DNA of 64,000 nucleotides from Pyxidicoccus caerfyrddinensis (GTDB taxonomy: Bacteria > Myxococcota > Myxococcia > Myxococcales > Myxococcaceae): NCBI RefSeq assembly GCF_010894405.1, contig NZ_JAAIYA010000026.1:111494-175493 (forward strand), given 5' to 3'. Below, in pieces: positions 1,497 through 31,037 of the stretch. Below the pieces are notes generated by a model. It saw nothing but the letters and a program-made list of their open reading frames with translations. It did no database searches and had not been told where the DNA came from. The translations under genes were made by a program, and so were the position numbers. Positions within the stretch are counted from its first letter, which is position 1; every line of letters starts with the position of its first letter.

Positions 1497-1526
1497 GCGC
1501 GCCCTGCCTATCACACGAGTCGTGCT

Positions 1527-2651: not shown

Positions 2652-3191
2652 ATGCGCATGCGAAAGCTGAGCTGGAGTGGCTTCGTGCTGTTCGGTCTGC
2701 TCGCCGGTTGCGCGAGCACGCCGGTGAAGGAGGAGCCGTCGGACGCCACCACGGAGGAGCGCCGTGAGGCGGAGGGCGGGGAGGAGGCGGAGGAGTCCAT
2801 CAAGAACACCACCTCCGAGGAGGGCAAGGCGCCCGTCCAGCCCATCATCGTGAGCGCGAGCCCGCAGGCGAAGGACCTCATCCGCATCGAGGGCATGCGC
2901 ATCCTGCGGGGCGTGCTGGACGTGAGCGTGTCCCACGGCGGCGGCTGCAAGGAGCACACGTACGCGCTGGCCTGGGACGGCACCTTCACCCAGGGCACGG
3001 ACGGCACGCCGGTGGCGAACCTGGTGCTGGTCCACGACGCCCACGAGGACCGCTGCAAGGCCATGAAGTACGCGACGCCGCGCTTCGACCTGGCGCCCAT
3101 CACCCAGGCCTTCCAGCAGAAGTACGGCAAGTCCACCGGCGCGGTGGACCTGGCCCTTCCGGGACAGGCCACCCTTCGCTACGAGTTCTGA
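2652..3191 (+). CDS. Lipoprotein of unknown function
   Basis: Signal peptide plus lipobox: MRMRKLSWSGFVLFGLLAGC/AST. GGAGG at 2647-2651 favours the second ATG at 2658 as the true start. An acidic low-complexity linker precedes a Cys-containing globular domain. The 3' end overlaps the convergent giant gene by 13 nt. Confidence 0.7.
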   Translation: MRMRKLSWSGFVLFGLLAGCASTPVKEEPSDATTEERREAEGGEEAEESIKNTTSEEGKAPVQPIIVSASPQAKDLIRIEGMRILRGVLDVSVSHGGGCKEHTYALAWDGTFTQGTDGTPVANLVLVHDAHEDRCKAMKYATPRFDLAPITQAFQQKYGKSTGAVDLALPGQATLRYEF

Positions 3192-6100
3192 GGCGGCGGC
3201 TTCGGAAGCTCGGTGACGCCGGGGATGTGCGTGGCGCCGGACTGCGTGAGCTTCTGGATGTCGTAGCCGCGCAGCGTCCCGGTGCGGACCGTGTCGCGCC
3301 AGTGGAAGACGGCGCGACGGCGGACCACCTCGGTGCGGAGGTCCTCCGGGCAGACCAGCTCCACGCGGGCGGGCGCGGGGCCCCAGGCGAAGCGGGCGCA
3401 CTCCACCTGCGGGTCTCCCTCCACGGGCTGCTGGCGGCGCAGCAGCGCGTAGGCCGCCTCGGGCACGGGTGTCACCGGCTCGGCGGTGATGCCCACCGTG
3501 AGGAATATGTCCTTGTTCTCGGTGACGCGCGACGAAGCCTCCGGCAAGGCCTTCAGGGTGAGCTTCAGCATCAGTGCCTCGCCCGGGCCGAGCACCGCGG
3601 GCTCCGTGCCGTCGCGCAGGTCCAGCAGCGATACCTCGCGCAGGCGCTCGGGCGCCACCGTGAGCGCGGGGGTGTCCACGCCGTCCTCGCGGACGCTCAG
3701 CGGCCGGGTGACTCCGCCCGGGCCCACGCGCAGCAGGGACAGGAGCGCCGGAAGCCCCGTCGTACCGTCGTCCCAGTCGAAGCGCAGCGCCATCCGGCTG
3801 TCCGGGTTGTACTCGCCACGGTCCGTGGCCAGCGTCACCGCGTGCAGAGCCTTCTGCGTCCCGTCCAGCGTCTTGACCAGCTGGGTCGCCCGCCGCGTCG
3901 TCGAGGCGAGGTGGCGGTTGTACTCGGGGTCCTCGAAGTGGAGGAACACGGGTTCCAGCGGCAGCGGCAGCACCCCCGGGTCCACCACCCGCAGCGGGAA
4001 GGTGAGCGTCTGGATGAAGCCCTCCGCGCCCGTCACGCGGCCGACGCGGGCGTGCACCGCAAGCACCCGGCCGGGCGCGAGGCGCTGGGAGAAGTCCGCC
4101 CGCACCTCCTCGGCGGAGCGTCCTCCCGTCCCCGCCAGCTTGAAGCCCAGGCGCCCTCCCTCCGCGGGCTCGGCGGGGCCGTAGGCGAACACCTTCCCGT
4201 CCAGCGGAATCTCCAGCGCGAGCGTCCAGTCCGCCAACGAGGCCCCCGCGTTCACGTCCGCCGACAGCGTCAGCGTGCCATCCCAGCTGGCGGGGATGGC
4301 ACCGTGCAGCGGGGCTTCCAGGACGAGCCGCAGGCGGTGGACGGGGCCGTCACCGAACGACGCGATGAAGGCCTCGTCCGCCGGAGAGGCCGTGGCCAGG
4401 ACGCTGTGCCCGGGTTCGAAGTGGCTGGCCCAGGTGCGCAGCGCGGCGCCGGGGTGCCGCGCGTCATTCTCCCGCAGCGGCACCGGGCGTGGCACGCGGT
4501 GCTGCACCGGGATGCTGCCGGAGACCATGCCCTGCCCGCGGTGGGCCTCGTCCCGGGTGGGGTCCAGCCCGGCCTGACGCAGGAGCTGGTGGCGCATGGC
4601 CAGCATCACTCCCGGCCGCGAGCCCGTGAGGTGGAAGCGCACCGTACCGGGCAGCACCGGTTGCCACCGCTTCATCCGGTCGGGCTCGTCCACGTTGAGC
4701 AACACACGCGGGCTCATCAGGGGCAGGGGCAGCTGGGGCAGCACCGGCAGCAGGCCCTTGATGGCGCGGGCGCGGAACAGCGGCGGCAGGCCCGCGGTGG
4801 GCCCGGCGGCGCTCGTGGCGGAGCGGAACTGCACCTGGTGCTGGAGCGCCTGCCACCACAGCGAGAAGGGCTTGTCGGGCACGCCGTCACGAGGGCCCAG
4901 CGTGCCCGTCGCCCCCTCCTGCTCGTGGGTGTAGTGCACGGTGGTGCGCAGCGCGCTCAGGCCCCAGGGCCAGTCGCGCGGCGATTGCTGCTGCGGCCCG
5001 CTCGCGGGCCGGTGGGCGCGGTGGATGGGCTGGACGCCGGTGACTTGCGGCGGCGCCAGCTCCAGGGGGCGCACCTCCTGGGGCAGCTCCTGGCCGCCGA
5101 AGTGCCCGTCGCGGAAGCGCAGCCGCGCCGGGGGCGAGCGCAGCTTGAGCACGCGCCGCGACAGGCCTCCCGTGCGCTCGAGTCCGGGGACGAGCGAGAA
5201 GGAGTAGGCGGTGGTCAGCACCGCTTCGTCCTCGCCCGACGCCACGGTCCGGTAGACCTCCCGGAACCGCAGCACGGCGAGCGGCGACTCGGGGGTGAGC
5301 CGACGGTGCATCTCCCGCGCCCAGGCGATGGCGGAGGCGCGGACCGCGTCGAGGCCCTCTCCGCCCTCCTTCACGTGGCTGGCGGCGGGCAGCAGGGCGC
5401 GGCGCGTGCGGTCCAGGCAGAGCAGCTCCACCACCACCAGCTCCGGGATGTCGTCCTCGCGAGGGGCCGCGGGGCGGAAGCCGAGGCCGAGGTAGGGGCT
5501 CACGGCGAGGCTCATCGGCGCGCGGACGGCATCCGCGCGCGGCGCGAGCGCGGTGGCGGCGGGGAAGCGGCGCGTCCCGGTGGCCGTCGACGGCCGGAGC
5601 CAGCCACCGCTCACGAGCTGGAGCGCGGTGAGCAGCCAGCCTGACGGCAGCGGCGTGGAGCTGCCGCGTTGTGTGAGTACGGCCTGGAGCGCGAGGAGCG
5701 CGTCCGGGCGCCACTGGAGGCGCGCCTGGCCCGGCAGCGGGTCCACTCCTCCGGAGGCCTTGGGCTGACCGGGCGGATAGGCGTTGCGGACCGGGTCGAA
5801 GGCGTACTGGAGCGCCGTGGCCCGGCTGAGCCTTGCGGGCGTCTCCGGCCTCGCGGCCAGCACGCTCTGGAGCGTGTCGAAGCGGGGCTCCGGCAGCGGG
5901 TGCTGCACTCGGAACCAGCTCTCCTCCAGCGACAGCGGGTCCAGCCTCGACCAGCTGCGCGCGCGGGCGGTGTCCAGGCTGGTGAAGGTGACGGCGGCGG
6001 CCTTGCGGTCGGCCCAGCCGCTCAGCGCCAGGGCCAGCGGGGGCAGCGCGGCCGGCTGCTTGCGCCGGCGCTCCAGGTTCAGCACCGGGTCCACCTGGAG

Positions 6101-9100
6101 CTGCGAGGCCGGGCCGGACGGGGCCTCCAGCCCGTCACGCGTCCGGTCCTGCAGGCGCCCGAGGAAGGGCACCACCAGCAGCAGCCAGCGCGGGTCCGCC
6201 GGGTCCGTGGGGCCGTAGTCCTGCGGGTTGCTCAGCAGGGCCTGCTGCGTGCCGCTCGGGAGGAACTGGAGCGTCGTGGCCGCGGTGGCCTTCACGGGCT
6301 CGCCCTTCACCCAGTGCAGCGCGGTGGCCTCCACCAGCAACGTACCGGCGGGCAGCGCGGCCAGCTCCGGAGCGCTCCCTCCCGCGAGCATCGTCCGGAC
6401 CTCCTGCCCCAGGTAGCCCGCGAGCACCTCGCCCACGGGGTCCACGTCGTCGGTGGGCGAGACGGCATGCAGGTCGCTGTCCTTGAAGCGCTGGAGGAAG
6501 GCCTTGAGCCCGGCGGGCGAGGCGATGCGCACCTCCTGCAGCGCCGTCCAGCGTCGGTCGTTGGACAGGCGCGGCGTGGTGAAGCCTTCACCCGGCGCCA
6601 CGTCCACGAGCTGGTGCTCCACCACCGCGAGGAACTGCCAGGACCTGCCGTCCGACAGGCGGAACAGCAGGTCTCCGGCGCTCACCTCGAAGGCGTCCCG
6701 TGGCAGCGCGTGCTGGTTGAAGAGGATGCGCGCCGTGTGTCGGACGTGGGCCAGTGGCACTGCCCCCGCCGCGGCCGGGACGGTGAGCGTCACCTTCGAC
6801 GCGTCGTACTGGAGGCTCGCCGGGTAGGAGAGGAGGTCCTTCACCTCCAGGTAGCCGTTGAGCAGCAGCGTCTCCGTCCAGGTGCTGTCCCGCGACTGGC
6901 CGGTGTAGCCGAACACCAGGTCGCCCGCGGAGGAGCCCGCCACCTGCGCCAGCGTGGGCTGCGCCGGGAGCGGCTCCGCCTGGAGGAAGGTGCCCCAGCG
7001 GCAGCTCAGCAGCGCCTCCACGAACGAGGTGCGCAGCCGCAGCGTGGGGACGTCCACCACGCCGGTGGCCGGTAGCAGCACGTCGAAGGACAGCGCCACG
7101 AAGCCGGGCGCGTCCTGGCCCACCAGCGACATGCCGGGAAGCAGCTGCAGGCCCGAGCTGCCCGGAGAGGGCATGGGCGCGCGGTAGCGGCTCCAGGTGA
7201 GCTGGAGCGCGCCGGGGCCGGTCTCGAGCGCCACCTCCGGTGGGGGCCGCTCCAGCTCCAGGTCGTCCAGCAGGAAGCCCGACTCCCAGATCGCCCTTCC
7301 CCGGCCGGGAAACGTGACGGCCGCCGCATCCTGACTGGTGCCCACCACGCCAAAGCGCACGCCCGCGCGGAAGGCCGAGCGCGCCACCGGGGTGGCCGTG
7401 GGACGGACCGCGCCTGGCGCGGTGGCTCCGGGCACCACCGGCACCCAGCGCACGGGCCGGGTCCGCGGGCCCGGCGGCATCTCCTGGAGGGCGCGGCCCA
7501 GCCGCACGTCCACCAGCAGCGACACCCGGTACTCGAGGCCGCGCGGGTCCAGCTCCACGGCGACTTCCTTCGGTGACAGCGGCTCGGCCGCGTCCAGCTC
7601 GGCCGGCACCATGCGCACGGAAAGCGGGGACGCCTTCCCGGTGAAGGTGAGCGCGGGCAGCGGCACGTTCCAGGTGGCGCCGAACAGCAGGAAGGCGAGC
7701 TGCACGCCGTCGACGCGGAGCCCGTCCTTCTCCGGTGTGAGGGCCGCGGAGCGGACGGTGAGGCGCGGGGCGTCTCCCAGCTCTCCGTTCGCGAGCTCCA
7801 GCGGCCATTCGCACTCCGCCGGAGCGCCCGGGGACGCCTCCAGCGCCGCCGCCGTCAAAGCCAGCCCGCCGCCGGACGGCGGCCGCTCGAAGGTGAGCCG
7901 GAGCGCGTTGCCCAGGTCCACCAGCTCTCCGCCGCCGGACAGGGGCAACTGCACGCGGCCCACCAACTCCAGTCGCGTCACCCCGGCGGCATCGAGCCGC
8001 ACCCGCTCCAGCGTCAGCGGGTAGAAGCCCAGCCCGAAGAGGGTGAAGGCGTCGACGTCGGTGGGCGGCGCCAGGCGCCACTCGTAGCCGTTGAGGACGT
8101 TGTGCTCGCGCGAGCCCGCCTCGGGGTCATTCACGTCCTGCGCGGCGGCGGAGCGGGTGCTGTCGCGCCGGAACTCACCCGCCGCGGCCGGCAGGTCCCT
8201 GAACCAGAGGCCCCACGTCAGCGCGCCACCCGTGATGGGGTCCTTCCCCAGGCCCAGCGTCACCGCCTCCAGCGTGGACACCAACTCCACCGCGGCGCCG
8301 CCCTCCAGGCGCACCGCCGTCCGCAGCTGCGTGCCCACGAGGCGCGTGGCCTTGCGCCACAGGCCCCGCTGGTCCCTCAGCCCCTCGCCGGCCTTCGCAT
8401 GGGCAGCCATGCTGCCCGCCACCAGCGTGTACGCGTCCGCGGAGGGCGTGCCCGCCGCGAGCCGGATGCCTCCGTCCGCGCTCTCGAAGCGGCCGGTGAA
8501 GCCCTCCAGGGCGGCCTCGCCCTTCAGCTCCACCGAGGCCGCGGGTGCTCCCGCCGCGTTGGCCACCACCAGCGAGCCCGGGTACGTGCCCAGCGCCAGC
8601 GTGGGGCTCACCGTCCACGTGTGCGGCTCCACCAGCCCCTGGACGCGCACGGCGCCGCCGCTGGAGGAGAAGGCGTCCACCGCGTCGGCGCTCGCCAGGA
8701 CGGCCAGCTCCGAGAGGCGGGACCAGTGGTCCGCCAGCGTCTCGCGAACCAGTGGCCGGGGCGGCTCCGGCGGCGAGTCATCCGCTGTGGGGGTGACTTC
8801 GTCCGGGCGGCGCGTGGGCGGCTTCAGCCGGGCCAGGGCCTGCGGTTCGTCCGTGTACGGCAGGTCCAGGCGGAGCTGCACCGGCAGGGTGGTGCCGGCG
8901 TCCAGCGGCAGCCCGGAGGCATTGGCGCCCGGCTTCAGCACCAGGCCTGGCAGCGACAGCGACACGAGCGGCAGGTCTGGCCTCCCCTTCCACTCGCACG
9001 CGGGGACCTGGGGCCCCCGTGCCCGGGGCCACGCGGCGGCGCCGTTCGTCCCGGTGACGCCGAAGCGCCAGCCCGAGGGAAGGGTGAGGCCGTTCATCTC

Positions 9101-11182
9101 CACCACCGGGAGCTCGAAGGGCGCGAGCTGTCGGCTGGCGCTGGGGTGGTTGGCGGGAGTGCGGCTCTGGGTGAGCGGCAGCGCCTGAATCCAGGGCAGG
9201 GCGGGGTGGCGCTTCCAGACGAGCGGCAGGTGGCTCGCGAACAGGGACGGGGGCAGCAGGTTCCGGTCCGCCATCGCGCGCAGCACCTCCGCGTCCGCGC
9301 CGTAGTCGAAGGACCAGGTCTTCAGCTGCGCGCTGGGGTGGGCGACCCGCCCCGGCCGGCGCTGGAGCTGCAGCGTGCCGAGCCCCGCCGTCACCACCGC
9401 GGGGAAGGCATCCTCCGGGGACACGCTTCGCAGCGTCACCGGGCGCAGGCCGCCAGCCCAGTCCTCCAGGTCCGGCAGGGCGTCCTCCGTGCGCGGCGCT
9501 TCGCTGCCCAGCCACACGAGGCCGCTCACGCGCACCTCGGGCTCATGCAGCACCAACTGCACCGAAGCCAGCGCGAGCGGCGCATTGGCGTTGGCGCGCT
9601 GCAGGCGCCACGTGCCGGTGAGCCCACCGAGGTCGGTGAGCGTCAGGCTCCACGACTGCTCGCCGCGCTCCAGCGCGCCGTCCTCCGGCTTGTCGTTGCC
9701 GTAGGAGACGGCGCCCTGGAGCCGCGGCTCGGGCAGCGTGTCCGTGCTGGGGAAGCGGGCGAGGCCGGCGTCCAGGTACATCTGCTCGGTGAGGTTGGGC
9801 ACCGGCAGCTGGGCCCAGCCGTCCTCCAGGCGCATGAAGGCCCAGAGCAGCGCGGGCTCCACGGGCTTGGCGGGCGTGGTGGCCGTGCCGGCAGTCCACT
9901 CGGGCGTGGGCAGCCGCTGCAGGCCGCGCACCAGCCTTGGCGTGTCCACCGGGCTGAAGGCGGCCCGCACGCCGGTGACGGTGAAGCCCTCCGTCCACTC
10001 CGGCTGGGCGCGGGTTGCCTGGTACTTCGCGCTGGCACCGCCCTCGGGGCCGCTGCGGAGCGTCACCTCCACGGTGCCATCCATGTGGCGGCCCACCGTC
10101 ACGTCCTCGGGGACGGTGCGCGCCAGCGAGGTGGGGGGCGTGCGCGGGTCGTACGGCGAGGCGTCGCTCAGCAGCAGCGCCAGCTCCTCACGGCCGAAGT
10201 GCAACTGGTGCCAGGTGGGCTGCTCCTGCCACGCCGGAATCTCCCAGGTCATCCGCGGCACCGTGCGCGGATTGACCACCTCCAGCGTCACCCAGCCGGG
10301 ACCCTGGGAGGCGGGGCCCTCCAGCTGCGGATTGCCAGGGTTGAGCGCGCTGGCGAGGCGCCCCCAGGACGCCGTCAGCGCGGTGCGCTCGACCGCGGTG
10401 AGCCGCTCCTCCTCGAGGGACAGCAGGTAACGCTGGAGGGTCGTCGTCCGCGAGCCCTCCGGCAGCACCGGCGCCAGGAGGAAGGGCGCGGCGAAGCGGT
10501 CCTTGCCCTGCGGCTCCCACGGCAGCGCGATGCGGCCGAACACCGACAGGCCGCTGGCATGCACGGAGAGCGCGGAGGTGAGGCACGCCGGGCCCGTGGC
10601 ATTGCGCGGCTCCAGTGGGGCCACGTCCAGCGTGAGCGCCCGGAACAGGCGGTCGCGCGCATTGTTCTGGGCGCACAGTTTGTCGAGGGGAATCTCCCCC
10701 GCGAGGCACGTCAGCTCCAGGTCCGACTGCCCCGACGCGGCGGGCGGGGTGCCCGCCCGGCCCGGGGCGCTGGCGGACCGGCCCGGGCCTCCCATGAGGA
10801 TGTCCAGCAGGCCGCGGCGCGAGTGCTCGTCCCAGTCCGTGGGGCGGGCCTGCACGAGCAGCAGCGCCAGGAAACCCTTCGTCACCTTGTCGTGCAGCTC
10901 CTCGGCCGTGGCGGGCAGGGACGGCGTGTTGCCGCCGCCGTCGTGCTCCCAGCGGTACTTCACGTCGCTCGGCGCCACCTCCACGGAGCGGACGTGGCAC
11001 AGCACCACCACCGTGGTGGGCGCGAGCAGCTGCTCGTTGTCCACCTCGCGCCCGTTCAGGTCGAGGAAGAGCTGGCGGAACGCGTAGGACTTCTTCGGGT
11101 CCTCGGCGCGCACCAGCTCCGCCTCGGCGCGCCAGAACGGGCCGCGGAGGACCACCTTCTTCAAGTCAATCGATGAAGACAT
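3179..11182 (-). CDS. Giant protein (2667 aa), unknown family; third gene of the giant operon
   Basis: Uninterrupted 8-kb ORF with native G/C third-position bias. AGGAG lies 8 nt upstream of the ATG, and the start is only 21 nt after the stop of the upstream 3472-aa gene. No signal peptide, TM segment, Walker A, HExxH or RHS/YD motif seen by eye. Confidence 0.85.
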   Translation of the reverse strand: MSSSIDLKKVVLRGPFWRAEAELVRAEDPKKSYAFRQLFLDLNGREVDNEQLLAPTTVVVLCHVRSVEVAPSDVKYRWEHDGGGNTPSLPATAEELHDKVTKGFLALLLVQARPTDWDEHSRRGLLDILMGGPGRSASAPGRAGTPPAASGQSDLELTCLAGEIPLDKLCAQNNARDRLFRALTLDVAPLEPRNATGPACLTSALSVHASGLSVFGRIALPWEPQGKDRFAAPFLLAPVLPEGSRTTTLQRYLLSLEEERLTAVERTALTASWGRLASALNPGNPQLEGPASQGPGWVTLEVVNPRTVPRMTWEIPAWQEQPTWHQLHFGREELALLLSDASPYDPRTPPTSLARTVPEDVTVGRHMDGTVEVTLRSGPEGGASAKYQATRAQPEWTEGFTVTGVRAAFSPVDTPRLVRGLQRLPTPEWTAGTATTPAKPVEPALLWAFMRLEDGWAQLPVPNLTEQMYLDAGLARFPSTDTLPEPRLQGAVSYGNDKPEDGALERGEQSWSLTLTDLGGLTGTWRLQRANANAPLALASVQLVLHEPEVRVSGLVWLGSEAPRTEDALPDLEDWAGGLRPVTLRSVSPEDAFPAVVTAGLGTLQLQRRPGRVAHPSAQLKTWSFDYGADAEVLRAMADRNLLPPSLFASHLPLVWKRHPALPWIQALPLTQSRTPANHPSASRQLAPFELPVVEMNGLTLPSGWRFGVTGTNGAAAWPRARGPQVPACEWKGRPDLPLVSLSLPGLVLKPGANASGLPLDAGTTLPVQLRLDLPYTDEPQALARLKPPTRRPDEVTPTADDSPPEPPRPLVRETLADHWSRLSELAVLASADAVDAFSSSGGAVRVQGLVEPHTWTVSPTLALGTYPGSLVVANAAGAPAASVELKGEAALEGFTGRFESADGGIRLAAGTPSADAYTLVAGSMAAHAKAGEGLRDQRGLWRKATRLVGTQLRTAVRLEGGAAVELVSTLEAVTLGLGKDPITGGALTWGLWFRDLPAAAGEFRRDSTRSAAAQDVNDPEAGSREHNVLNGYEWRLAPPTDVDAFTLFGLGFYPLTLERVRLDAAGVTRLELVGRVQLPLSGGGELVDLGNALRLTFERPPSGGGLALTAAALEASPGAPAECEWPLELANGELGDAPRLTVRSAALTPEKDGLRVDGVQLAFLLFGATWNVPLPALTFTGKASPLSVRMVPAELDAAEPLSPKEVAVELDPRGLEYRVSLLVDVRLGRALQEMPPGPRTRPVRWVPVVPGATAPGAVRPTATPVARSAFRAGVRFGVVGTSQDAAAVTFPGRGRAIWESGFLLDDLELERPPPEVALETGPGALQLTWSRYRAPMPSPGSSGLQLLPGMSLVGQDAPGFVALSFDVLLPATGVVDVPTLRLRTSFVEALLSCRWGTFLQAEPLPAQPTLAQVAGSSAGDLVFGYTGQSRDSTWTETLLLNGYLEVKDLLSYPASLQYDASKVTLTVPAAAGAVPLAHVRHTARILFNQHALPRDAFEVSAGDLLFRLSDGRSWQFLAVVEHQLVDVAPGEGFTTPRLSNDRRWTALQEVRIASPAGLKAFLQRFKDSDLHAVSPTDDVDPVGEVLAGYLGQEVRTMLAGGSAPELAALPAGTLLVEATALHWVKGEPVKATAATTLQFLPSGTQQALLSNPQDYGPTDPADPRWLLLVVPFLGRLQDRTRDGLEAPSGPASQLQVDPVLNLERRRKQPAALPPLALALSGWADRKAAAVTFTSLDTARARSWSRLDPLSLEESWFRVQHPLPEPRFDTLQSVLAARPETPARLSRATALQYAFDPVRNAYPPGQPKASGGVDPLPGQARLQWRPDALLALQAVLTQRGSSTPLPSGWLLTALQLVSGGWLRPSTATGTRRFPAATALAPRADAVRAPMSLAVSPYLGLGFRPAAPREDDIPELVVVELLCLDRTRRALLPAASHVKEGGEGLDAVRASAIAWAREMHRRLTPESPLAVLRFREVYRTVASGEDEAVLTTAYSFSLVPGLERTGGLSRRVLKLRSPPARLRFRDGHFGGQELPQEVRPLELAPPQVTGVQPIHRAHRPASGPQQQSPRDWPWGLSALRTTVHYTHEQEGATGTLGPRDGVPDKPFSLWWQALQHQVQFRSATSAAGPTAGLPPLFRARAIKGLLPVLPQLPLPLMSPRVLLNVDEPDRMKRWQPVLPGTVRFHLTGSRPGVMLAMRHQLLRQAGLDPTRDEAHRGQGMVSGSIPVQHRVPRPVPLRENDARHPGAALRTWASHFEPGHSVLATASPADEAFIASFGDGPVHRLRLVLEAPLHGAIPASWDGTLTLSADVNAGASLADWTLALEIPLDGKVFAYGPAEPAEGGRLGFKLAGTGGRSAEEVRADFSQRLAPGRVLAVHARVGRVTGAEGFIQTLTFPLRVVDPGVLPLPLEPVFLHFEDPEYNRHLASTTRRATQLVKTLDGTQKALHAVTLATDRGEYNPDSRMALRFDWDDGTTGLPALLSLLRVGPGGVTRPLSVREDGVDTPALTVAPERLREVSLLDLRDGTEPAVLGPGEALMLKLTLKALPEASSRVTENKDIFLTVGITAEPVTPVPEAAYALLRRQQPVEGDPQVECARFAWGPAPARVELVCPEDLRTEVVRRRAVFHWRDTVRTGTLRGYDIQKLTQSGATHIPGVTELPKPPPQNS

Positions 11183-11203: not shown

Positions 11204-14200
11204 TCAGAGCGGGCGGGAATCCAGCGGGTGGATGGGGCTGGGACGAGCGCTGCCCCGCCGGGCGCGGATGCCCAGCTTGCGGTCGTCCATGCCGCGCGAG
11301 TGGGACTGCTTGTGGAGCCGCTCCACCGCGGCCTTCTCGGCGCCGCGGGGGAACAGCGCGCGCAGCCGCAGCGCCTCGTCGCGCGTCATCAGCCCGTGGT
11401 AGCGCAGCACGGCCCCGCCGATGACGAGGCGCGCGGACAGCGGGTGCGCCGCATCCAGGGTGGGACGCAGCGGCGCGGTGAAGGGCACCTGGAGCACGCG
11501 GGCATCGAGGTCGGCGACGAGGGCCTGGAGCGCGGCGACGAAGGGCGCGTCACCGTCCAGCGCCAGCAACTGCTCGCGCTGTGTAATGTCGTCCAGCGGG
11601 CCCCTCCAGTGCACGGCCGTGGGCTCCACGGTGAGCCGCGCGGAAAGCGCGTCGGGGAGGTCGCCCTGGCGGGGCCGGCGCTTCACCGGCGCCAGGTCCA
11701 CCTCCTGGTCCACGTCCACCAGCTGGAGCAGCAGCCGCACCGTGCCCTGCCACTGCGCGTCCCCGGGCATGGCGAGCAGCGCCGCGCGCTGGGCATCGGT
11801 GGGCGCCGGGGCCGTCCACGTCACCGTCCCCGTCGCGAAGCGCAGCTGGGCGCGCACGAACTCGGGCAGCGTGTCCTCCGCGGGGCGCTCGCCCAAGTGC
11901 GGCACCGTCCGGTCCGTGTCGATGGCCGCGAGCAGGCGCGTGCGGGCGCCGAGGAACGCGGCGTCCCCGGCCAGCGCGGCCAGGGCCTCGCGCTCGGCGT
12001 CCGTGGGCGCGGGGCCCTTCCACCGCAGCTTCGCGTCGGTGATTCCGAGCCGGCCTCGCAGGACGGCTGGCAGCTCCCCGGCGAGGGGCCGGGCGGCGGG
12101 CAGCGGCCGGGTGGCCACGGCGGCGTCGAAGGCCTCCTTCAGCCGGGCGAAGGCATCGGCCAGGGCCGTCACCCGCACCCAGCGGTCGATTTCGAGCTGG
12201 TGCTCGGCCCACAGGTGCCCCTTCCACACCAGCGTGGTGTACGCGGTGCCGGCGGCGTCCGTGCGCAGCTCCACCTTCTGCGCGAGCGCCGGTGGCAGCT
12301 GCTCCGGCCCCCGCGGCGCCACGACGGTGGTGACGGTGTCTGCGCCCGCGCCAGCCGCGGTGGCGATGAGCGTCTCCACCGTGCGGCGGAGTTCCTCGTC
12401 GCCGGGCAGGGCGCGCAGCGCCTGGGCCTGTGCCGCGTCCAGGGGGCCCGTCCACACCAGCGGCAGGTCCTCGGGCTTCTCGAAGTCCACCACGTCAGCG
12501 AGCGACGCGGGCACGTCCATCGCCGAGGCCACGGGCACGCGGGCGTACCAACCGTCATGCACCCGGCCCACCGCCTGGCGGTCCAGCGCGTCCAGCACGG
12601 CGAGGTTCTGCCGGTCCTCGTGCGTGAGGACTCCCACGAAGGACAGCCGCCGCGCGTTGAAGGCCAGCTTGGAGCGGGTGGGCTCGGGGATGGAGGCCTG
12701 CTGCGGCGCCGTGTACGGGCGCGACAGCTCCAGCTCCGTCACCTGCTGCACGGTGACGGCCAGCAGGAAGCGGTCCTCCTCCGTGCCGAGGGGGACCTCG
12801 GGCAGCGACAGCGCGGCGATGTCCGCGAGGAAGTGCCCGCCGAGCTGCCGCTTCGCGAAGGCGCCTGCCGCCGCGTCGAAGTAGAGCTCCGCCTGCACCT
12901 CCACGTTGCCCTGGTGCTCCTCCACCACCTGGTAGACGACATCCAGGTCCGGCAGCCACGAGGGGCCGCGCCCGCCGGGCCGGGGCCGCTCGCTGCCCCA
13001 GCGCTGCTGAGCGCGCTCCGGCAGCGACTCCCACAGCCGCCGCAGCGGAATGCCCAGGCCCCGCGCGCGCACCGTCAGCCCGGACGCCGGAGTCGTGCCG
13101 CCGAAGGGCGGGGTCGGCACCCAGCCGGTGCGTGTCATGCCCTCCACCCAGGCCACGGGCTTCTCCGGCGCGCGGTACTCGAAGTCGCGCTGCCGCACCT
13201 CGTTGAGCGGGGACACGGTGCTGTGCGTCTGCGCCATCAGGAGGAGCCGGTGCTTGTAGTAGAAGGGCAGCCCCTCCCACTGGATGACCTGCGCGCCCTG
13301 CTGGAAGGCGCCCACCCGCAGCGGCAGGTCCAGTCCCCGCGCGTCCTCCACGCTCAGCCGCCCGGACAGGTCCAGGTGCTCCGGCTGCTCGGGGAGCGTG
13401 CCGGGGATTTCCGGCACGCGGTCCTCCACCGGCGTCAGCACCAGCGGCCCTGACAGGCCCGCGGCGCCCTCCAACGCGGACACCCAGCCTGGGAAGGCGA
13501 AGCCGCGCAGCAGTGTGAAGGCCACCTGCCGGAAGCCGAGCTGCCGCGCCAGCGTCTGGTTGCGCTCCATCAGCGCCTGCTCCGGGTGCTGGGCCACCAC
13601 CACCTCCCACGTGCTGCCGGGCTCGGAGGGCACCACGGGTGGAAGCGGTTCATCGGGAGCGGACGGCTCGAGCGGCGCGTCCGCGTCCAGGCGGGTGGAG
13701 CTGAGCACCAGCGGCATGTCCACGGCGCGGGTGCGGTCCATCACCACGTCGAGCCCGCCCGCGAGCGGGTCGGGCCGGGCGGGCTCCACGGCCGGGGCGT
13801 CCGGGTACAGGAGCGGCGACTGGCGCAGCCCCTGCCACAGCAGGTCGTAGCGCGCGAAGGGGCGCACGTAGAACCGGTAGTTGTGCGCCCACGCGTCCTC
13901 GAGGAGGTGGTCGTACGTCAGCCGGCCGCTCTCGTCCGGGCTGGAGTACGCAGGTGAGCTGGCGCGCGGGTACGCCGTGGCCACCCACGGCCCTTCGGGA
14001 GCCACGAGGGGGCCGTCCTGGGTGAAGTCGATGCGGCCGGTGGCGTCGAAGAAGCGCTGCGACCAGGTCAGCACGTCCGGCAGCACGTCCTCCAGCGCGC
14101 TGCCCGAGGCGGGGATGCGAATCTTCTGCTCCGCGGGCATGCCCGGGTCGGTGCTGGAGAGCGACTCCGCGTACCGCCGGAAGCGCCGCCACTGCACGGC

Positions 14201-17200
14201 CTCCGGGCGCAACTTCTCGTCGGACGTGTCTTCGTCATGGGCGAGGAGCGCGGCCAGCGGCTCGACGTCGGCGGGGAAGTAGGTGGTGCGCTCGTCGGTG
14301 ACCTGGAAGAGCGGCTCCAGGCGCATCCCCAGGAGGGCGGTGAGCGCGGCGGGCTCCTGGGCGAGCGTCGTGCGCAGCAGCGCGCGCGCGTCGGCGGACA
14401 GCGTGTGCGGCGACTGCGCCAGCACCAGCTCGGCGGCCGGCGTCTCACGGTACGTCACGTAGGCCGGCAGCGGCTCCTGGGTGAGCAGGGCCTGCGCCTC
14501 CGGGGACAGGGGCCTGCCCAGGGCCACGCCCGCGCCGGGCAGGTCCGCGAGCGACAGCGCCTCCGCCGCGCTGCGCGTCCTCAGCAGCACCTGCGTCTTC
14601 CCATTCAGCGGCAGCACGAAGGTGCGCTTCGACACCGTCCCGGTGGTGGCGCCCGGCTCGGGCTCCAGCTCCGCCTGTCCGGCGGCGGGGTTCGTCTGCT
14701 CCACCACGCTGCACGTGGTGGCCGGCTTCAGGTGGAGGACGACGTCCAGCGGGGCCCCGGCGGGGCCTTCCAGGTGGATGGCCGAGTACAGCGCGCGCTG
14801 TCGCACCACCGGCCGCAGGCTGAGCTGCACCAGCGCGAGCAGGTCCTCCGCGACGACGGCGCCCTCCCGCAGCGCGACGGCACGTCCCGGCTGGAAGAGC
14901 AGCTCGACATGGAGGTGCCGGGCCGCTTCGTCCGGGAGGACGCCCTGCTGTGCCAGCACGTCACGCACGGCGTCCAGCAGGGCCTGGCCCTTCAGCACCT
15001 CGCCCGTCCGCGGCTCGCGCAGGCTGAAGGCCATGCTCAGCCCCAGGCGCTGGAGCACGCCCCAGCCGTACGGGTCCGCCTGAGCCGCCGTGGCGCGCAG
15101 CAGGTCCGCGAAGCTGCCCGGCTGGGTGGGCGGGCTGATCTGCAGGTCCACGGTGAAGGCCGGCAGTTGCGAGTCCCCGGCCGGGCGCTGGAGGCGCTGG
15201 ACGATGCCCGCGAGCACCGGGTGCAGCGCGCTGGTGCGCGACGGCGCGGGCGAGTCCGTCAGGCCTGGCCAGTGCGGCCACTCGAGGAGGGACTCGCGCC
15301 AGGACGGACCGGGCGTGAGCGAAAGCTGCGAGCCCGCCGCGCGCGCGGCCGGCGTGCGGCGCCGCTGCAGGGTGCTGGGGTACCAGGCCTCCCACGCGCT
15401 GGTGGCCAGCGTGTCACCGGGGACGAGTTGCATGTCCCCGGCCGGCAGCATCTGCACTTCCTGCAGGCCGCGCAGCGCGCGGGACAGCCGGTCCGCGTCG
15501 CCGAACGTCTCAGTGGTGTGCGCGTCGGTGTCCAGCTCCAGCAGGTGGTAGCCGGCATGCAGGTCCAGCGGGTGGTCCGGCGCGCCGCTGGGGCCCTGGT
15601 TCCACCGGAACCGGATGCACCGCACGCCCGCCGGGTGCTTCTGGTGGAGCACCCCGGTGAGCTGGCCATTGAAGCGGAAGGCCTCCGGGTGGCCCACGGT
15701 GCCCACCGGCATGGGGAAGTGCGCGTCCTCCACGGTGGCGCGTACGTCCTCGGGCGGCAGCACCGGCAGCACCACCGGCGAGGGCAGCCACTCCAGCTCG
15801 GCGGGGCGGCGCTCCTCGCGGCGGCGGTTGTCCGTGTCGTCCGCGGGGGCGTCCGCGCGCACCACGCGCAGCAGCAGCTGCACGGGTGCGAGCGCGGAGG
15901 GCACGCCGTTGCCCGACTCCGTCTGCATGAACAGCCGCCAGGCCTCGGGGCGCCAGGCATCATTCTCGGCGGGGAGCACGCGCAGCTCGCGCAGCTTCGT
16001 GAGCGGCACCTCGGCGACGCGCTTCTCGCGGGGGCCGGTGGGCACCACGGTGACGCGCACGTCGGTGGGCAGTGGCCGCGCGTTGCTGGTGGGCAGGGAG
16101 CGGGCGCCGGCGCGCTGGGTGGCGCTGTCCAGCCCGTAGCTGCCGATGGGCAGCGACGTCTCGCGCCGGAAGACGAGCACGTATGTCTTCACCGGCACCT
16201 GCGGCTGGCCGGGCGCTGCGGATGGTTCGGACCACTCCAAGAAGACGCGGTCCGGCGTCACCACCCTCGGCGTCCCCACGTCGCGCCGGGCGAGGATGGC
16301 GAGGTCCACCTTGTAGCGGACGACGCACTCGGCGTTCACCGGCACGAGCGGCGGCTCGCTGGGGTAGCGCGTGGCCACCACCGTCAAGGGGCGGCCCGCG
16401 TTGCCGGCGAAGTCGTAGGGCGTAATCGTGTAGAGGTAGCTGCGGCCGCTGAGGGGCAGCGCGGCCAGGTCCTCCGCCGTGTCCTCGTGGAAGTGGTCCA
16501 CGAGCTGGAAGCGCGGCTGCAGGCGCTTGAGGGCGCCGCCCTCGCGGTGCAGCGTCTGCGCGCCCTTCAGCGTGTAGACGGCTTCCGGGGTGTTGCTTTC
16601 CAGCCCGCGGCGGCGGACGTGGTAGTGGACCAGGTGGTGCTCGGGCGAGGCCTGGGCCGGCGTCAGCCCCGCGCGCGGGGGCTGCTCCCAGACCAGCTCC
16701 CACGCCAGGGCGATGGTGCGCGCGTCGGTGAGCTGCTGCACCCGCCGGAACTGGGGCGGATTGCGCGTGAAGTTCGTGTCGCGCACGTTGAAGGTGCGCA
16801 CCGACACCTCGGACCCGGAGCAGGTGGTGTCCTCCACGCGGATGCGCTGGCGGAGCCTGGGCTCGGGCTCACCCCTCTCGGGCACGCCATCCAGCCACGC
16901 GGGCAGGCCACCGCTCACGCGGAACACCAGGCCCATGTGCAGCGCGACGGAGCGCTCACGCTGCTCCGGCGTCAGGCCGCTGCCGTCCGGCGACGCGGCC
17001 AGCGCGCGCAGGTCCGCGACGATGTCATGCACCACCATGCCGCGCAGCTGGTGCGCCTGCTGCTCCTCCAGCATCTTGCGCAGGCCCGGCGCATCGTCCG
17101 GGACCTTGCCGTCGTCGGAGTACACGGTGGTCCTGTCCTGGTACGCCTGTCCAAGCAGTCGGTCGTACTCCACCCGCGTGTCGTCGCGCTTGAAGAAGGG

Positions 17201-20200
17201 CGAGCCCCGGAACTGCTCCACCGCGCCGCGCACCGCGGCCTCGAAGGCGTTGTCGGTGGGGTTGTGGACGCGGTCGTCCGCCACCACGTCCTCTGACCGC
17301 GTCGGGGGCAGGCGAGCCGGATCTCTCAATCGAATGGTGGCACCCAGCGCGTCCACCTCGGTGACGAAGGCATGGCGCAGGTAGCGCGCCAGCGTGAAGG
17401 TCTCGTCCCCCACCTCGGGCACGCCCGTCTCCGAGTACCTTTCCCCCTTTTTCTCCAACTCCGTCTCCCAGTGGGCGCGCCACGCCACGTCCTGGGAGGG
17501 CTGACCGGGGGTGGGCGCGTGGGGCTTCCACATGCCCGTGAGCGGGTCGAGCTGCTCCAGCGTGTACGTGTCCTTCGCGGCCCGGGGCACGGTGAGGACG
17601 AAGTCGTTGTAGCCGGGCTGAGCCCACGCACCCTCCGCGGGCGGCACGGGCAGGAAGCCGGGCTCCTCCTCCACCTCCCCGCTCGGGGTGGGCCGCTCGC
17701 CCTGTGGCATCAGTACGAAGTAGTGGGTGCCCTTCGGGTCCTCGGAGCGGATGGCGAACACCGTGTAGCCCGGGGCCTCGAACGTGCCTTCCGCCAGCGT
17801 CCGGCGCTGGAGGGCCGGGGGTGCTTCTTCCGTACGAAGGGTGTCGGCGCGCAGGGCGGCGGGCGCGGGACGGCCGCTCCGGAGGGCGGCGCCCTCGACG
17901 CCGGGGATGCCCTCGACGTCGGTGGCTTCCAGTCCGTAGTCGAGCACGTGCTTCGTGCGCTCCAGGGCCTCGGCCACCTTGCCCTCCCTCATACCGATGT
18001 GCGCGCTGAGGTGGAAGCTGCGGCCCATCACCGACAGCGACAGGGTGCCGGTGCCGCGCAGGCCGATGCCGTTGGGGGACAGGCCGACCATGCCCACCTC
18101 CAGCCCGGCGGTGAAGTCGATGCCGAAGCTGAAGCGGAACGACTTCTTTATCTTGATGAAGCCCAGCTTCAGCTTGATCCAGAACTCGATGGCGAACCGG
18201 ATGTGCGCCTCGATGCCGATGCCGCCGTAGAGCGCGGAGCTGCCCACCGGGTCCTTCAGGCTGAGCAGGCCGATGTAGCGGGCGCCGTATGCGAGGCTGG
18301 CCTGGGCGCTGACGCGCACACCGACGATGCCCAGGTTCACCTGGGCGCTGAAGTCCAGCTTCGCGCGGGCGAGGAAGCTGGTGCCGGTGACGAGCTCCTC
18401 GCGCGACAGCCGCCAGATGAAGCCGCCGCGCAGCTCCGCCTCCAGCGGGCCCAGCTTCTGGCTCCAGCGCAGCATGTTGGGCCAGCCCAGCTCGTAGTGC
18501 AGCAGTCCCGGCTCCACCAGCAGGGTGGCGGAGAACTGGCAGCTGGTGAGGGCCTTCTCCACGAACTCCGGCAGCTGCGGGTGGGGCCCGAGCTGGCCGT
18601 TGGGGTTGGAGGCCACGTGCGCCAGCAGCCGCTTCTGCCGCGGTGACAGCAGCACGAAGCCGGAGACGAAGGGGCGCTCGCGCAGGCCTTTGTAGTTGCT
18701 GACGTAGTCGTAGTAGTTCGCGTTCAGCCAGCCGCGCACCGCCATGAAGAACGTCAGGTCGCTGCGGAAGGCGATGACGGCGTCCAGCAGGAAGAGGCAG
18801 GAGATGAGCTTCTCGGCATTCTCATCCCACTGCAGCGGCGACGCGGACGCGGACGTCTGGGAAATCATCGCGCGCAGCACGATGGTCCACCGCGGGTCCT
18901 GTCCGGGGTCCTCCAGGTCCAGCGCCCACCGGTCCCGCTTGGAGAGGTCACCCTGCGTGCGCGACAACTTCTTGAGCTCCTTCAGCAGCTCGCGCACATC
19001 GTTGGCCTGGTCCGCGGCCTTGATGCTGGCCAGGGTGTAGCGGTACCCGAAGCCCAGGCCCACCTCGCGCACGTACAGCTGCACGACGGGAATCATCAGG
19101 CTGATCTGCCGGGCCTCCAGGTAGATGAACCAGGCGCGCAGCCAGGGCGAGGACTCGTCGCGGCGCACGCGCAGGAAGGAGAAGGCGGCGGCGAAGGTGG
19201 GCAGGCCCTGAATCTGGAGCGTGCCCTCGCCGGAGAAGCCCTTCTCCGTGGTGCTGTCCACGAAGTCCACCACGCCGTTGAGGCGGAAGGCGGCGCCGAA
19301 GTTGAGGTTGACCGGCAGGTTGCCGAAGTGGAGGCGCGGCAGGAAGTGGCCCTCCTCCGGCAGGCCGATGTAGAGCCGGTGGTAGTCCACGCGGGTGTCC
19401 GGCGTGTCGCCCGCGCCCTGCGCGAACTTGAGCTGGCCGGTGAGCAGCATGGCCCCGTCGCCGCCGAAGACGTCGGCCTGTGGGATGAAGCCGATGCCGC
19501 GCAGCTCCAGCTCGAAGCAGCCCAGGAAGCTGAAGGACAGCGGCTTGGGCAGCTCGATGAGGAAGCGCACGTGCTTGGAAATGACGCGCGCGTCGCCGGT
19601 GAGCGGGCACTCCACCAGGTCGATGCGCAGCTTCGGCAGCAGCGCCAGCGCACCCTCCGCGTCGTCGCTCTCCGCGAGGCGGAATTGCGCGCTGCCGGTG
19701 AGCACGAAGTACAGGTGGAAGCGCCCATCGTTGACGAAGCGCAGGCCGATGGCGTCCACCTGGAACTCGAAGCGGGTGCTCTGGCAGTGCAGCAGCTTGG
19801 AGCCCCGCAGGCGCGCGCCGCCGGACACCAGCGTCAGCGCTCCGTCGCGCTGCGCCAGCTGCAGCGAGATGTCCGCCATGGCGTCGCCCACCAGCGCGGG
19901 CGGCATCGGTCCGGAGCCGTTGAGGGTGAAGTCCTGGACCCGGTTCTCCACGATGACGAGCCGGCTGTCATTGAAGCGGAAGCGTGTGTCCAGGCCGTTG
20001 AGCTTCGCGGGCCGGTCGGTCACCGTCGCGGTGACGTTGAGCCCCTTGGGGGTGAGCGCGAAGTCGGTGATGGCGAAGACGATGGGCTCGTCGCTGACGT
20101 GGAGGTACTTCACCTCGAAGGACGCGCCGGGAGCCTGCTGGAGCTGGTAGTTGTACTTGTCCGTGGCCAGCGTGAAGAGGTGGTAGCGCGTCTTGCCGTT

Positions 20201-21637: not shown

Positions 21638-23911
21638 CTACGAGAGGGGAAGCTCGTCGGGGCGGATGACCCACAAGGTCCCGACGATGCGGTTGTCCCA
21701 GGTGACGGAGTTGGCGGCCCAGGTGGTCTGCGTCTGGGCCCAGTTCTGGCCGCGCAGCGCCTGGATGTTGGCGTCGTTGACGCCGTTGAGCGCGCGCTGT
21801 TCGACCTGGTAGCGGTCGATGACGTAGTCGCGCAGCACGTTGTGCAGGGGCGACACCAGGCACCCCGCGGAGCCGGTGCCGGTGTTCTGGCCGCTCATGG
21901 TGCCGCGGTGGATGCGGACGTTCACCTTGCCGCCGTGGGTGGGTGACGTCTGCGGGTCGTGGCCCGCCTCGGGCACGTCCTCTGTGACGTGCTCGCCGAA
22001 GTAGAAGCGCGCCTCGCGTAAGCCGTCGTAGGCGGTGACGTCCGGGTCCACGACGGTGAAGGTGTAGTTGCGGAACTGCGGGCCACTGCCCGTTCCGGGC
22101 GAGCGGTAGCTGGCCCAGTGGTAGCGGCGGTTGCCCCGCACGGACGACAGGTTCTGGTCGTTGGCAGGGTAGTTGCGCGAAGTGAAGCTGGTGTAGCGCA
22201 CCTGCGCGTGCACCTCGCCGTTGTGCACGACGAACATCACCCCGTCGTAGTGGTCATAGAAGCGGGGGTTGGCCGGGGTGGCGGGGACGGCCGGACCCAG
22301 GTCATAGGCCAGCGCGGGCAATTCGCCGCTGAGGCCAGCGGGGATGTGCCAGGCGGAGGTTCCGCCGCCGAAGTCCGGGTTGCCGTCCAGGGTGAGGGTG
22401 CGCTGGACGCGGTCGAAGGCGGTGATGCGGTAGGTGCGGCGGGGCCGCGCGGTGTCCGAGGGCAGGTAGACGGTGTCGAAGCGCGCGTTGAGCTTGTTGA
22501 TGTTGGGGGTGCCGTCCAGGCGCACCGTGTTGTCCGCGGTGCGCGTGGCGGAGGCGCCCTGCAGCCGTCCGCCCAGCGGGTCGATGAGCACCAGCACCTG
22601 CCGCAGGCTGATGCGCCACGGGGACGGATTGCCGCCGAGGTTGGGCTCGCTGGCGCCGGCCTCCAGCGTCACCTGCCGGTTGGCCACGTCCACCGCGGTG
22701 ATGCGGTACCACTTCCGGGGGCGCGCGGTGTCCGCGTCGAGGTAGAGCAGGTCCTTCCCGGCGCGCACCCGGCTCAGGTCCATGGTGCCGTCGAGGGTGA
22801 CCTGGTTGCCCGCGGCGGTGGCGGCGGCGCCCTCCGGGTCCAGGAAGTCGATGGTGGTGGCCGCCGTGGGCGTGCCAGGCACCGCGCCGGCGAGCCAGGG
22901 GTCGTCGAAGAGCGAGTAGAACTCGACGATGGCCTCGAGCTGGAAGAGGTTGAGCGCGTCGCGGTCGTTGAACTCGAAGGGCGGGGCGGTGCTGCCCGCG
23001 GGGGCGTGGCCCGCGCGCTTGAGGAGCTGCTCGCGGTAGAGCGCCTTCTGGTGGTTGCCCACCTGCCGCCACTGCGCGGCGGTGAGGTGGAGGCGGTCCT
23101 TCGCCTCCTTGAGCACGCTGAACGGATAGAGCGACGCCTGCACCAGTCCGAGCAGCGCGGCCGGCGTCGCCGCGTCGATGACGGGCCACTTCCTGGGCGC
23201 GAGGGTGAGGAGCTCATCCACCTTCGGCTGCCCCTCCTCCACGAAGTCGCGCATCACGTCGTAGAGGTGCGACGGGTCCGTGGTGCCGGAGAAGGTGAGC
23301 ACGGAGAAGCCCACCTCGCGGGTTCCCGCCTGGCCTGCGACCGGCGCGGCCCGGCCGATGGCATGTCCCGCCGTCACCGGCACGTCCACCTGCCCGCGGA
23401 TGAGCAGGTCCACCACCCGCGCGCGGTTGAGGCCCTGGTTGGGGATGAGGAAGTCCAGCTGCTCCGCCAGCGCGGCCTCCAGGGAGCCCGTCTCGATGTC
23501 CAGGTAGATGAAGCCACGGAGGCCGCCCAGCTGCTGCGCGCGCTGTTGGAAGGCCTGCGCGCCCGTCATGACGAAGGACGGGTGGAGGTACAGCTTCACG
23601 CGGGGCGGGAGCGGCTCGTAGTCCTCGGGCAGGTCGAAGGGCTCCGTCGGGTCGGGTGCTCCACCCAGCGGCGGGCGCGCGGACAGCGTGCCGGCCATCA
23701 CCGCGAGAAGCTGCCCGGTGTCGGTGGTACGGAGCCGGAGGTGGTCGCGGAAGGCGTGCTGAGGCCCGGGCGTGGACGGGGCCGGCCCATAGCCGTGGAC
23801 GCGCGTCCATGGCGTGGGGGCGACGAAGGGCGGGTTGATGAACAGCCGGAGCGGTTTGGCCAAGCGCGACTCCCCCTCAGATTCGCGTCGATGCGGCGCT
23901 GACGCTTCCAT
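21638..23911 (-). CDS. 757-aa protein of unknown family with an internal duplicated module and a C-terminal YkuD (L,D-transpeptidase)-like His/Cys motif; first gene of the giant operon
   Basis: ORF with native codon bias and no signal peptide (MEASAPHRRESEGESRLAKPLRLFINPPF). C-terminal motif VNVRIHRGTMSGQNTGTGSAGCLVSP. A 122-bp divergent intergenic region lies upstream. Confidence 0.8.
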   Translation of the reverse strand: MEASAPHRRESEGESRLAKPLRLFINPPFVAPTPWTRVHGYGPAPSTPGPQHAFRDHLRLRTTDTGQLLAVMAGTLSARPPLGGAPDPTEPFDLPEDYEPLPPRVKLYLHPSFVMTGAQAFQQRAQQLGGLRGFIYLDIETGSLEAALAEQLDFLIPNQGLNRARVVDLLIRGQVDVPVTAGHAIGRAAPVAGQAGTREVGFSVLTFSGTTDPSHLYDVMRDFVEEGQPKVDELLTLAPRKWPVIDAATPAALLGLVQASLYPFSVLKEAKDRLHLTAAQWRQVGNHQKALYREQLLKRAGHAPAGSTAPPFEFNDRDALNLFQLEAIVEFYSLFDDPWLAGAVPGTPTAATTIDFLDPEGAAATAAGNQVTLDGTMDLSRVRAGKDLLYLDADTARPRKWYRITAVDVANRQVTLEAGASEPNLGGNPSPWRISLRQVLVLIDPLGGRLQGASATRTADNTVRLDGTPNINKLNARFDTVYLPSDTARPRRTYRITAFDRVQRTLTLDGNPDFGGGTSAWHIPAGLSGELPALAYDLGPAVPATPANPRFYDHYDGVMFVVHNGEVHAQVRYTSFTSRNYPANDQNLSSVRGNRRYHWASYRSPGTGSGPQFRNYTFTVVDPDVTAYDGLREARFYFGEHVTEDVPEAGHDPQTSPTHGGKVNVRIHRGTMSGQNTGTGSAGCLVSPLHNVLRDYVIDRYQVEQRALNGVNDANIQALRGQNWAQTQTTWAANSVTWDNRIVGTLWVIRPDELPLS
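22337..22807 (-). repeat. Tandem duplication of a ~65-68 aa module inside the 757-aa protein
   Basis: Copy 1 is NQVTLDGTMDLSRVRAGKDLLYLDADTARPRKWYRITAVDVANRQVTLEAG...SPWRI (22604-22807). Copy 2 is NTVRLDGTPNINKLNARFDTVYLPSDTARPRRTYRITAFDRVQRTLTLDGN...SAWHI (22337-22531). The DNA cores also match (GGTGATGCGGTA...CGCGCGGTGTCCG). Confidence 0.75.
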
Positions 23912-29548: not shown

Positions 29549-30892
<1,344 letters not shown>

Positions 30893-30972
30893 CCCACGAA
30901 TCAAACACGGAAACCGCATGATTTGAATCGTGGCCGGGAAACACCGCTCCAGCAGTTCCGGACACTTGGCCC

Positions 30973-30988
30973 TGGCAGGGGGCGTGCA
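30973..30988 (+). promoter_or_regulatory. Candidate sigma-54 (-24/-12) promoter for the flotillin-like gene
   Basis: TGGCAGGGGGCGTGCA compared with consensus TGGCACG-N4-TTGCW. GG and GC are separated by exactly 10 nt. It lies ~50 nt upstream of the ATG at 31038 and next to the divergent EBP gene. Confidence 0.4.
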
Positions 30989-31037
30989 GTGGAGGGGGGC
31001 ACTCCCGCACTCCCGCGGGCGGCAGGAGAAGGGCCTC

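Follow-up and report, generated by a model that had tools for sequence, protein, structure and literature searches.

A capped array of α/β repeat units at the C-terminus of a giant Pyxidicoccus protein, possibly a length-adjustable arm

The C-terminal region of a giant protein from Pyxidicoccus caerfyrddinensis was analysed within a 64,000-nucleotide stretch of contig NZ_JAAIYA010000026.1 (positions 111,494–175,493), hereafter the window, whose own numbering is used throughout. The protein comprises 3472 amino acids (aa) and is encoded at 11204..21622 on the minus strand, as obtained from the open reading frame (ORF) list and the translation. The ORF is a real gene in view of its codon bias, with a GC content at third codon positions (GC3) of 0.95. 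As judged from sequence, its C-terminus forms a tandem array of seven units spanning ~480 aa (aa 2993–3472), with specialised caps at both ends. The capped tandem-repeat scaffold is a familiar architecture, and the unit itself is an undescribed domain family. We propose, with a probability of roughly 0.45, that this region would constitute a rigid modular α/β arm, the length of which is tuned by the middle units and which presents a docking cap.

Detection and extent of the array

An original prediction, made from the letters alone, had placed six tandem repeats in the C-terminal 418 aa of the protein. The region was exactly located: window positions 11207..12460 on the minus strand encode aa 3055–3472, and the six unit boundaries stand as given. 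Units were compared pairwise by Smith-Waterman alignment against 300 shuffles. All pairings within the set of units 1, 3, 4 and 5 had z scores between 2.6 and 16.7, the highest being that of units 3 and 4. Units 2 and 6 were not significant against the other units of the query by this procedure. A family repeat hidden Markov model (HMM) was built from 412 homologue units, with the query left out, and matched aa 3055–3120 (E = 9e-16), 3131–3196 (9e-10), 3199–3266 (4e-16), 3268–3335 (3e-15) and 3339–3403 (3e-15), all in register with the predicted boundaries. The last 67 aa reached an E value of only 0.68, restricted to profile positions 1–35. In total, the iterated unit profile gathered 417 units, including the five of the query, in 114 proteins. 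When run against 205 kb of DNA translated in all six frames, comprising the window plus five related loci, it matched nothing else.

Identity between units within the query is 18–39%. Neither BLAST self-comparison of the protein nor Tandem Repeats Finder on the DNA detected a repeat; the repeats are therefore ancient and have drifted far apart. This divergence puts the units beyond the reach of these two programs, and they were detectable by shuffle-calibrated Smith-Waterman alignment and profile methods; an HMM derived from only four sequences, all of the query, was overfitted and did not recover units 2 and 6. The two empty searches, together with the lack of pairwise significance for units 2 and 6, speak for a periodicity arising from the Ala/Leu/Pro-rich composition of a high-GC genome. 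This artefact is excluded by the shuffle z scores, the in-register query-free matches to five units at 1e-9 to 1e-16, the 412 homologue units in 114 proteins, a unit-precise indel relative to Archangium, and an AlphaFold2 model with a predicted local distance difference test (pLDDT) score of 94 and repeating secondary structure. The six predicted repeats are thus real, with significant periodicity and with the region present in most relatives. The predicted extent was correct as far as it went, but the array begins ~60 aa farther upstream, with a unit hereafter numbered 0.

The individual units

Unit 0 (aa 2993–3054, LSFVGVLTHEDRQNL...; 12461..12646, minus strand) is a cap-like N-terminal unit identified by hhalign. 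It aligned with the unit profile over the full length at an E value of 6.6e-5 (probability 64%) when an orthologue-only alignment was used, and at 1.2e-9 with the iterated alignment. Its motif Dr.aI.rly is similar to that of the C-terminal cap.

Unit 1 (aa 3055–3130; 12233..12460, minus strand; independent E value, i-E, 9e-16) is of a position-specific type, LVWTGPL...ALPGDEEL, and its best match is unit 1 of the homologues. Unit 2 (aa 3131–3198; 12029..12232, minus strand; i-E 9e-10) had been termed degenerate, but is instead a conserved positional 'WAQ' subtype, the consensus of which (YTxLxWxGxLxDxxxxxLxxWAQxxxFxxAV) is kept across an alignment of 36 homologue arrays. Units 3 (aa 3199–3266; 11825..12028, minus strand; i-E 4e-16) and 4 (aa 3267–3336; 11615..11824, minus strand; i-E 3e-15) belong to an expandable middle type, with the signature PAPTDAxR in unit 3. 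Unit 5 (aa 3337–3405; 11408..11614, minus strand; i-E 3e-15) is a position-specific penultimate type, with the consensus WxGRxxxxxQxxAL...GDxPF in the homologue arrays. Units 1, 2 and 5 match their own positions in orthologues best, and units 3 and 4 are interchangeable.

Unit 6 (aa 3406–3472; 11207..11407, minus strand), identified by hhalign and likewise described as degenerate in the original prediction, is instead a conserved and specialised C-terminal cap, half of which is homologous to the unit. Its first ~35 aa correspond to the first half of the unit (hhalign with 104 family tails, E 5.7e-6, positions 1–35), and the remainder contains GL.G..L.IRARRGSA.PS, a motif that is conserved better than any other in the region. 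In the query, the terminal motif IRARRGSARPS (aa 3452–3462) was read directly in the DNA at 11237..11269 on the minus strand. RRG[ST]A occurs in 61 of the 104 family tails, usually 13–14 aa before the C-terminus, and most complete homologues have a tail of ~65–75 aa after the last full unit. The net charge of the cap is +9, versus −6 to +2 in the other units.

Predicted structure and conserved positions

An AlphaFold2 model was computed for aa 3030–3472 (443 aa) with an alignment of 36 homologous arrays. The mean pLDDT was 94.4 and the predicted template modelling (pTM) score 0.82, with all five models above 92. Six units were predicted, each with the order strand-strand-helix-helix-strand (E-E-H-H-E), including the terminal cap, in which a terminal strand follows. 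The model thereby gives confident repeating units and supports the strand, two helices and DLPxxLxxxL-type connector per unit that had been described from the sequence. A connector does close each unit, as originally described, but it is not a disordered linker: the segment is predicted to be ordered, as a short helix at DLPxxL followed by a strand, within a model that is confident over its whole length. The pTM value suggests that the array is rigid.

The informative positions of the unit profile are L1, W3, G5, L15, L18, F24, A27, L31, P50, L55, P56, L59, L63 and I65. Nearly all are hydrophobic or structural, neither catalytic nor polar, and no conserved polar or surface position was found in the profile.

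No solved PDB chain was similar to the array by fold. The repeat unit is thus absent from all domain and structure libraries that were searched. As its predicted confidence is nevertheless high and it is conserved over many phyla, it deserves to be described as a new domain family.

Several known arrays resemble it in part. POTRA arrays (Omp85/BamA, TpsB, FtsQ) share α/β units of ~70–75 aa with three strands and two helices, and occur in tandem in variable number, roughly 1 to 7. However, POTRA domains follow a β-α-α-β-β order, in contrast to the β-β-α-α-β order found here with the units as delimited, and they are N-terminal, whereas this array is C-terminal to a β-rich body; membership was rejected, as there was no Pfam POTRA match and no profile or fold match. 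LysM and other small cell-wall-binding repeats, which are often attached to envelope-active proteins, are likewise short tandem units of β/α/α/β type in variable copies. The present units are larger (~68 versus ~45 aa) and position-specific, and have no conserved ligand-contact residues; LysM membership was set aside, as Pfam gave no match and none of the fold matches was a LysM chain. Capped solenoids (TPR, HEAT, ankyrin and LRR-type) share specialised terminal caps around expandable internal repeats, conservation restricted to the core, and whole-unit indels between orthologues, but the units here have three strands in addition to two helices. A TPR-like assignment was also dropped, given no profile or fold match.

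The protein family and its copy number

Word-indexed homology searches were nearly blind to the giant family (1, 3 and 0 matches), which became accessible through exhaustive HMMER searching. The last 1200 aa as query returned 249 homologous clusters at 50% identity, 155 of them at E ≤ 1e-30. Genome loci were collected with the core alignment; two other alignments had no stretch conserved enough for searching, and a genome scan with the C-terminal protein gave no match. The family is rare and occurs in at least 124 species representatives with a patchy distribution over Myxococcota, Actinomycetota, Cyanobacteriota, Chloroflexota, Bacteroidota, Planctomycetota, Verrucomicrobiota, Acidobacteriota and others. 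Some of the carriers can be cultured, namely Archangium, Actinomadura, Spirillospora and filamentous cyanobacteria. Most homologues are 3.3–5.3 thousand aa (kaa) long, and the giant is named 'hypothetical protein' wherever any source names it. Its most conserved core (aa 430–1290; 17753..20335, minus strand) is nearly all-β, resembles large membrane-type β-sheets, and is 44–80% identical across 80 genome loci. AsmA-like proteins, which are lipid bridges with a repeating β-groove, were considered as possible relatives of this core alone. Of the loci that extend to the C-terminus, most have the array and the tail. The giant of the window combines the features that define the family, namely a β-rich core, a C-terminal array with a basic cap, and a partner of ~2600–2900 aa encoded directly downstream.

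The 3472-aa protein itself had no family at E ≤ 0.1 in Pfam, NCBIfam or PADLOC and none at E ≤ 0.01 in PHROGs; the PDB sequence search gave no match, and an exact-sequence look-up of the protein of the window returned no record. No precomputed Pfam match was found for the homologues in five related loci (L001–L005, introduced below), and a literature search on the giant-protein family found nothing.

Copy number varies among orthologues, with 0–1 up to 10 units detected by the profile. All loci of Actinomadura, Spirillospora and Kribbella have 2 units, and the other Myxococcota have 6. The most closely related giants are those of Archangium minus Cbm 6, with a core 80% identical, and of an Archangium metagenome-assembled genome (MAG). 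Both orthologues contain exactly one additional middle unit of ~75 aa, in register; the indel falls within unit 3 of the query, at aa 3245|3246 (window 11888|11887). Identity to the query is 32–37% for the array, 54–65% for the core and 44% for the cap. Plasmid-borne homologues in rhizobia and Undibacterium are more distant, with a core at ~33% identity.

Function of the array

A capped repeat scaffold is suggested because the model is confident, conservation is confined to the core, the ends are specialised, the middle is expandable through whole-unit indels, and the basic terminus is conserved. From the N- to the C-terminus, the arm would comprise the cap-like unit 0, the position-specific units 1 and 2, a variable middle (here units 3 and 4), the position-specific unit 5, and the basic cap 6 ending in IRARRGSAxPS. 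Each unit would be a β-hairpin followed by two helices and a strand, conserved almost wholly in its core. The array may then act as a structural extension, with a length set by gain or loss of whole middle units, and its task would be to keep the conserved terminal cap exposed at a defined spacing from the rest of the giant. The terminal cap is the likely docking element, and its target would most likely be the 2667-aa partner or, otherwise, another copy in an oligomeric assembly. Beyond the observed repeat, fold class, caps, copy-number variation and gene adjacency, we infer both the spacer role and the docking partner. Given the tight and conserved adjacency of the two genes, the 2667-aa protein is plausibly the most economical candidate for docking.

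Several points weigh against such an arm. Unit count does not follow partner length: in six loci, 5, 2, 3, 9, 5 and 6 units stand beside partners of 2667, 2890, 2637, 2620, 2620 and 2866 aa, respectively. No unit was detected by the profile in 5–6 of 74 full-length homologues. The one Mesorhizobium pOM4 homologue examined also has no detectable unit, and the array is therefore a clade-specific C-terminal module. Distant plasmid-borne giants without the array still keep a partner, so the array is not essential to the giant–partner relationship in general. The link between the cap and the partner is one that we infer, and the pTM of 0.82 is an indirect sign of rigidity; the overall shape may be a rod or a compact superhelix.

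The original prediction had offered a spacer or stalk, or else a multivalent binding platform. The former, which is the better supported half of that interpretation, fits the rigid high-confidence model, the conservation at core positions and the expandable middle. In the latter, each unit would hold one copy of a ligand in the manner of LysM, SLH and choline-binding arrays; candidates would be polymers of the cell wall, head groups of lipids and the variable protein encoded upstream. Small α/β tandem units in variable copy number, with a loosely LysM- or POTRA-like composition of strands and two helices, are consistent with this, as are the envelope-active or hydrolytic neighbour genes of two related loci (PLDc_2 in L001; PLD-like, S8 and M20 in L006) and the Laminin_G_3 domain in the partners of L001 and L005. 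However, the unit profile holds no conserved polar or surface positions, the units are not equivalent, each being specialised for its place in the array, no binding repeat of Pfam or NCBIfam was matched, and we take the protein, from reading its sequence by eye with no tool, to have no apparent N-terminal signal peptide. We therefore regard a binding platform as unlikely and that half of the prediction as unsupported.

The same apparent absence of an N-terminal signal in a very large protein would, conversely, agree with the C-terminal cap and its motif being an export or sorting signal and the repeats a passenger-side spacer, comparable to C-terminal secretion and sorting domains. The most conserved element of the region is strongly basic and lies 13–14 aa from the C-terminus, and the resemblance of the core to membrane-type β-sheets points the same way. 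Pfam and NCBIfam include models for MYXO-CTERM, PEP-CTERM and the T9SS CTD, but neither library gave a match at E ≤ 0.1, and the tail has no hydrophobic transmembrane stretch. Moreover, the same tail is found in Gram-positive actinomycetes, cyanobacteria, Chloroflexota and Myxococcota, which have no single dedicated secretion system in common. The curated C-terminal signals were rejected on these three grounds; signals of the type I secretion system, which have no good model, are not fully excluded. An export signal is thus more doubtful still than a platform, and both are less likely than the length-adjustable arm.

A broader conjecture, to which we attach little weight, is that the arm sets lengths in an undescribed and horizontally spread machine of two giants, a β-sheet protein of ~3.3–5.3 kaa and a partner of ~2.6–2.9 kaa, often located by variable hydrolase genes. 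Such a machine might act on membranes or cell envelopes, either for defence or to deliver toxins or effectors, with the cap coupling the giants and the number of units setting the reach. The larger unknown is the adjacent pair of giant genes itself (~3.5 + 2.7 kaa), carried by no fewer than 124 species spread over the bacterial tree, and the role of this cassette is a more interesting question than the array. For effects of arm length, the Archangium one-unit indel and the counts fixed within clades (2 in Actinomadura and Spirillospora) represent natural variants.

The operon and related loci

The giant gene is the second of three genes in an operon on one strand, which runs from a 757-aa gene through the giant to the 2667-aa partner. 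The partner gene (3179..11182, minus strand) starts with an ATG 21 nucleotides past the stop codon of the giant, preceded by an AGGAG ribosome-binding site. The 757-aa gene (21638..23911, minus strand) encodes a protein with no family match in Pfam, NCBIfam, PADLOC or PHROGs, and with no PDB support either. This protein has an internal duplication of ~50 aa (DLLYLDADTARPRKWYRITAVDVANRQVTLEAG / DTVYLPSDTARPRRTYRITAFDRVQRTLTLDG). Its C-terminus, VRIHRGT...GTGSAGCLVSP, resembles the His...Cys motif of YkuD L,D-transpeptidases; our guess, from this motif, that the protein is a peptidoglycan hydrolase was supported by neither Pfam nor the PDB.

Related loci were compared on a Spirillospora chromosome (L001), three metagenome contigs (L002 and L003 among them), a cyanobacterial MAG (L005), Mesorhizobium plasmid pOM4 (L006) and Undibacterium plasmid pUYM01 (L007). 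A partner homologue lies directly downstream of the giant in L001–L005, as sequence-compared in L001–L003 (E = 0), and in 38 of the 50 genome loci with room downstream. The gene upstream of the giant is not conserved among related loci, and the 757-aa protein shares no homology with what is encoded at this place in L001–L003. The upstream gene of L002 contains GAYNAGSP, from which we presumed a peptidoglycan hydrolase; neither Pfam nor the PDB supported this.

In L001 (20068–28740) and L005 (17094–25694), the partner contains an insertion of Laminin_G_3, a concanavalin-like lectin domain, no match to which was found in the 2667-aa partner of the window. Downstream of the distant giant homologue of L007 (24790–32444), two genes of ~1280 aa replace the single partner of ~2600 aa, and these may represent a split partner.

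The genes beside the giant pair vary and often encode large hydrolases (L001 8388–10004; L006 1–10173; L002 7432–9981; L003 8387–9982). The neighbour in L001, encoded upstream of the giant, is a PLDc_2 protein and the cluster in L006 comprises an S8 peptidase, a PLD-like protein and an M20 protein, the others being unannotated. By analogy, these variable neighbours are reminiscent of effector genes beside a conserved delivery apparatus.

Two-component giant toxins, namely the Tc toxins (TcA + TcB-TcC) and Rhs/teneurin-like cocoons, resemble the cassette in their adjacent, very large genes without signal peptides, their huge antiparallel β-sheet bodies, the variable enzyme genes nearby in some loci, and a patchy distribution suggestive of horizontal transfer, plasmids included. 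Unlike them, the present system has no Pfam toxin-family match and no PDB sequence match. Searches of the 3472-, 2667- and 757-aa proteins in Pfam and NCBIfam gave no match to TcA, TcB, Rhs/YD, SpvB or any toxin family, nor to any other family, and membership in the Tc/Rhs group was therefore rejected.

Some loci lie among mobile-element and conflict genes, which encode a phage integrase, CHAT-NACHT-TPR STAND proteins, TnsD, a multiubiquitin-domain protein, a WYL protein and a UvrD helicase (L002 1–7226 and 28724–30647; L007 1–6226). Assignment to anti-phage defence was nevertheless dropped, as no PADLOC model matches the giant pair, despite the STAND/CHAT, WYL, UvrD or integrase neighbours in some homologous loci.

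Other features of the window

The GC content of the window is ~72%, which, together with the core 80% identical in Archangium minus, points to a myxobacterial source in or near the Archangiaceae. Upstream of the operon by ~3 kb and on the same strand, a 449-aa protein (26792..28141, minus strand) carries a C-terminal NADase_transloc / F5/8 type C domain (E 5e-15). Nearby lie genes for a σ54 enhancer-binding activator (29549..31048, minus strand) and a 677-aa SPFH/Band 7 protein (30930..32963, plus strand), and farther along there is a sugar-nucleotide cluster with a GDP-mannose dehydratase, an epimerase and glycosyltransferases. An 848-aa ORF at 84..2630 on the plus strand encodes a C-terminal GT4 glycosyltransferase domain and shows atypical values of 0.84 for GC3 and 0.84 for GC1, the GC content at first codon positions; its listed start may be too far upstream, or the ORF may be partly non-coding.

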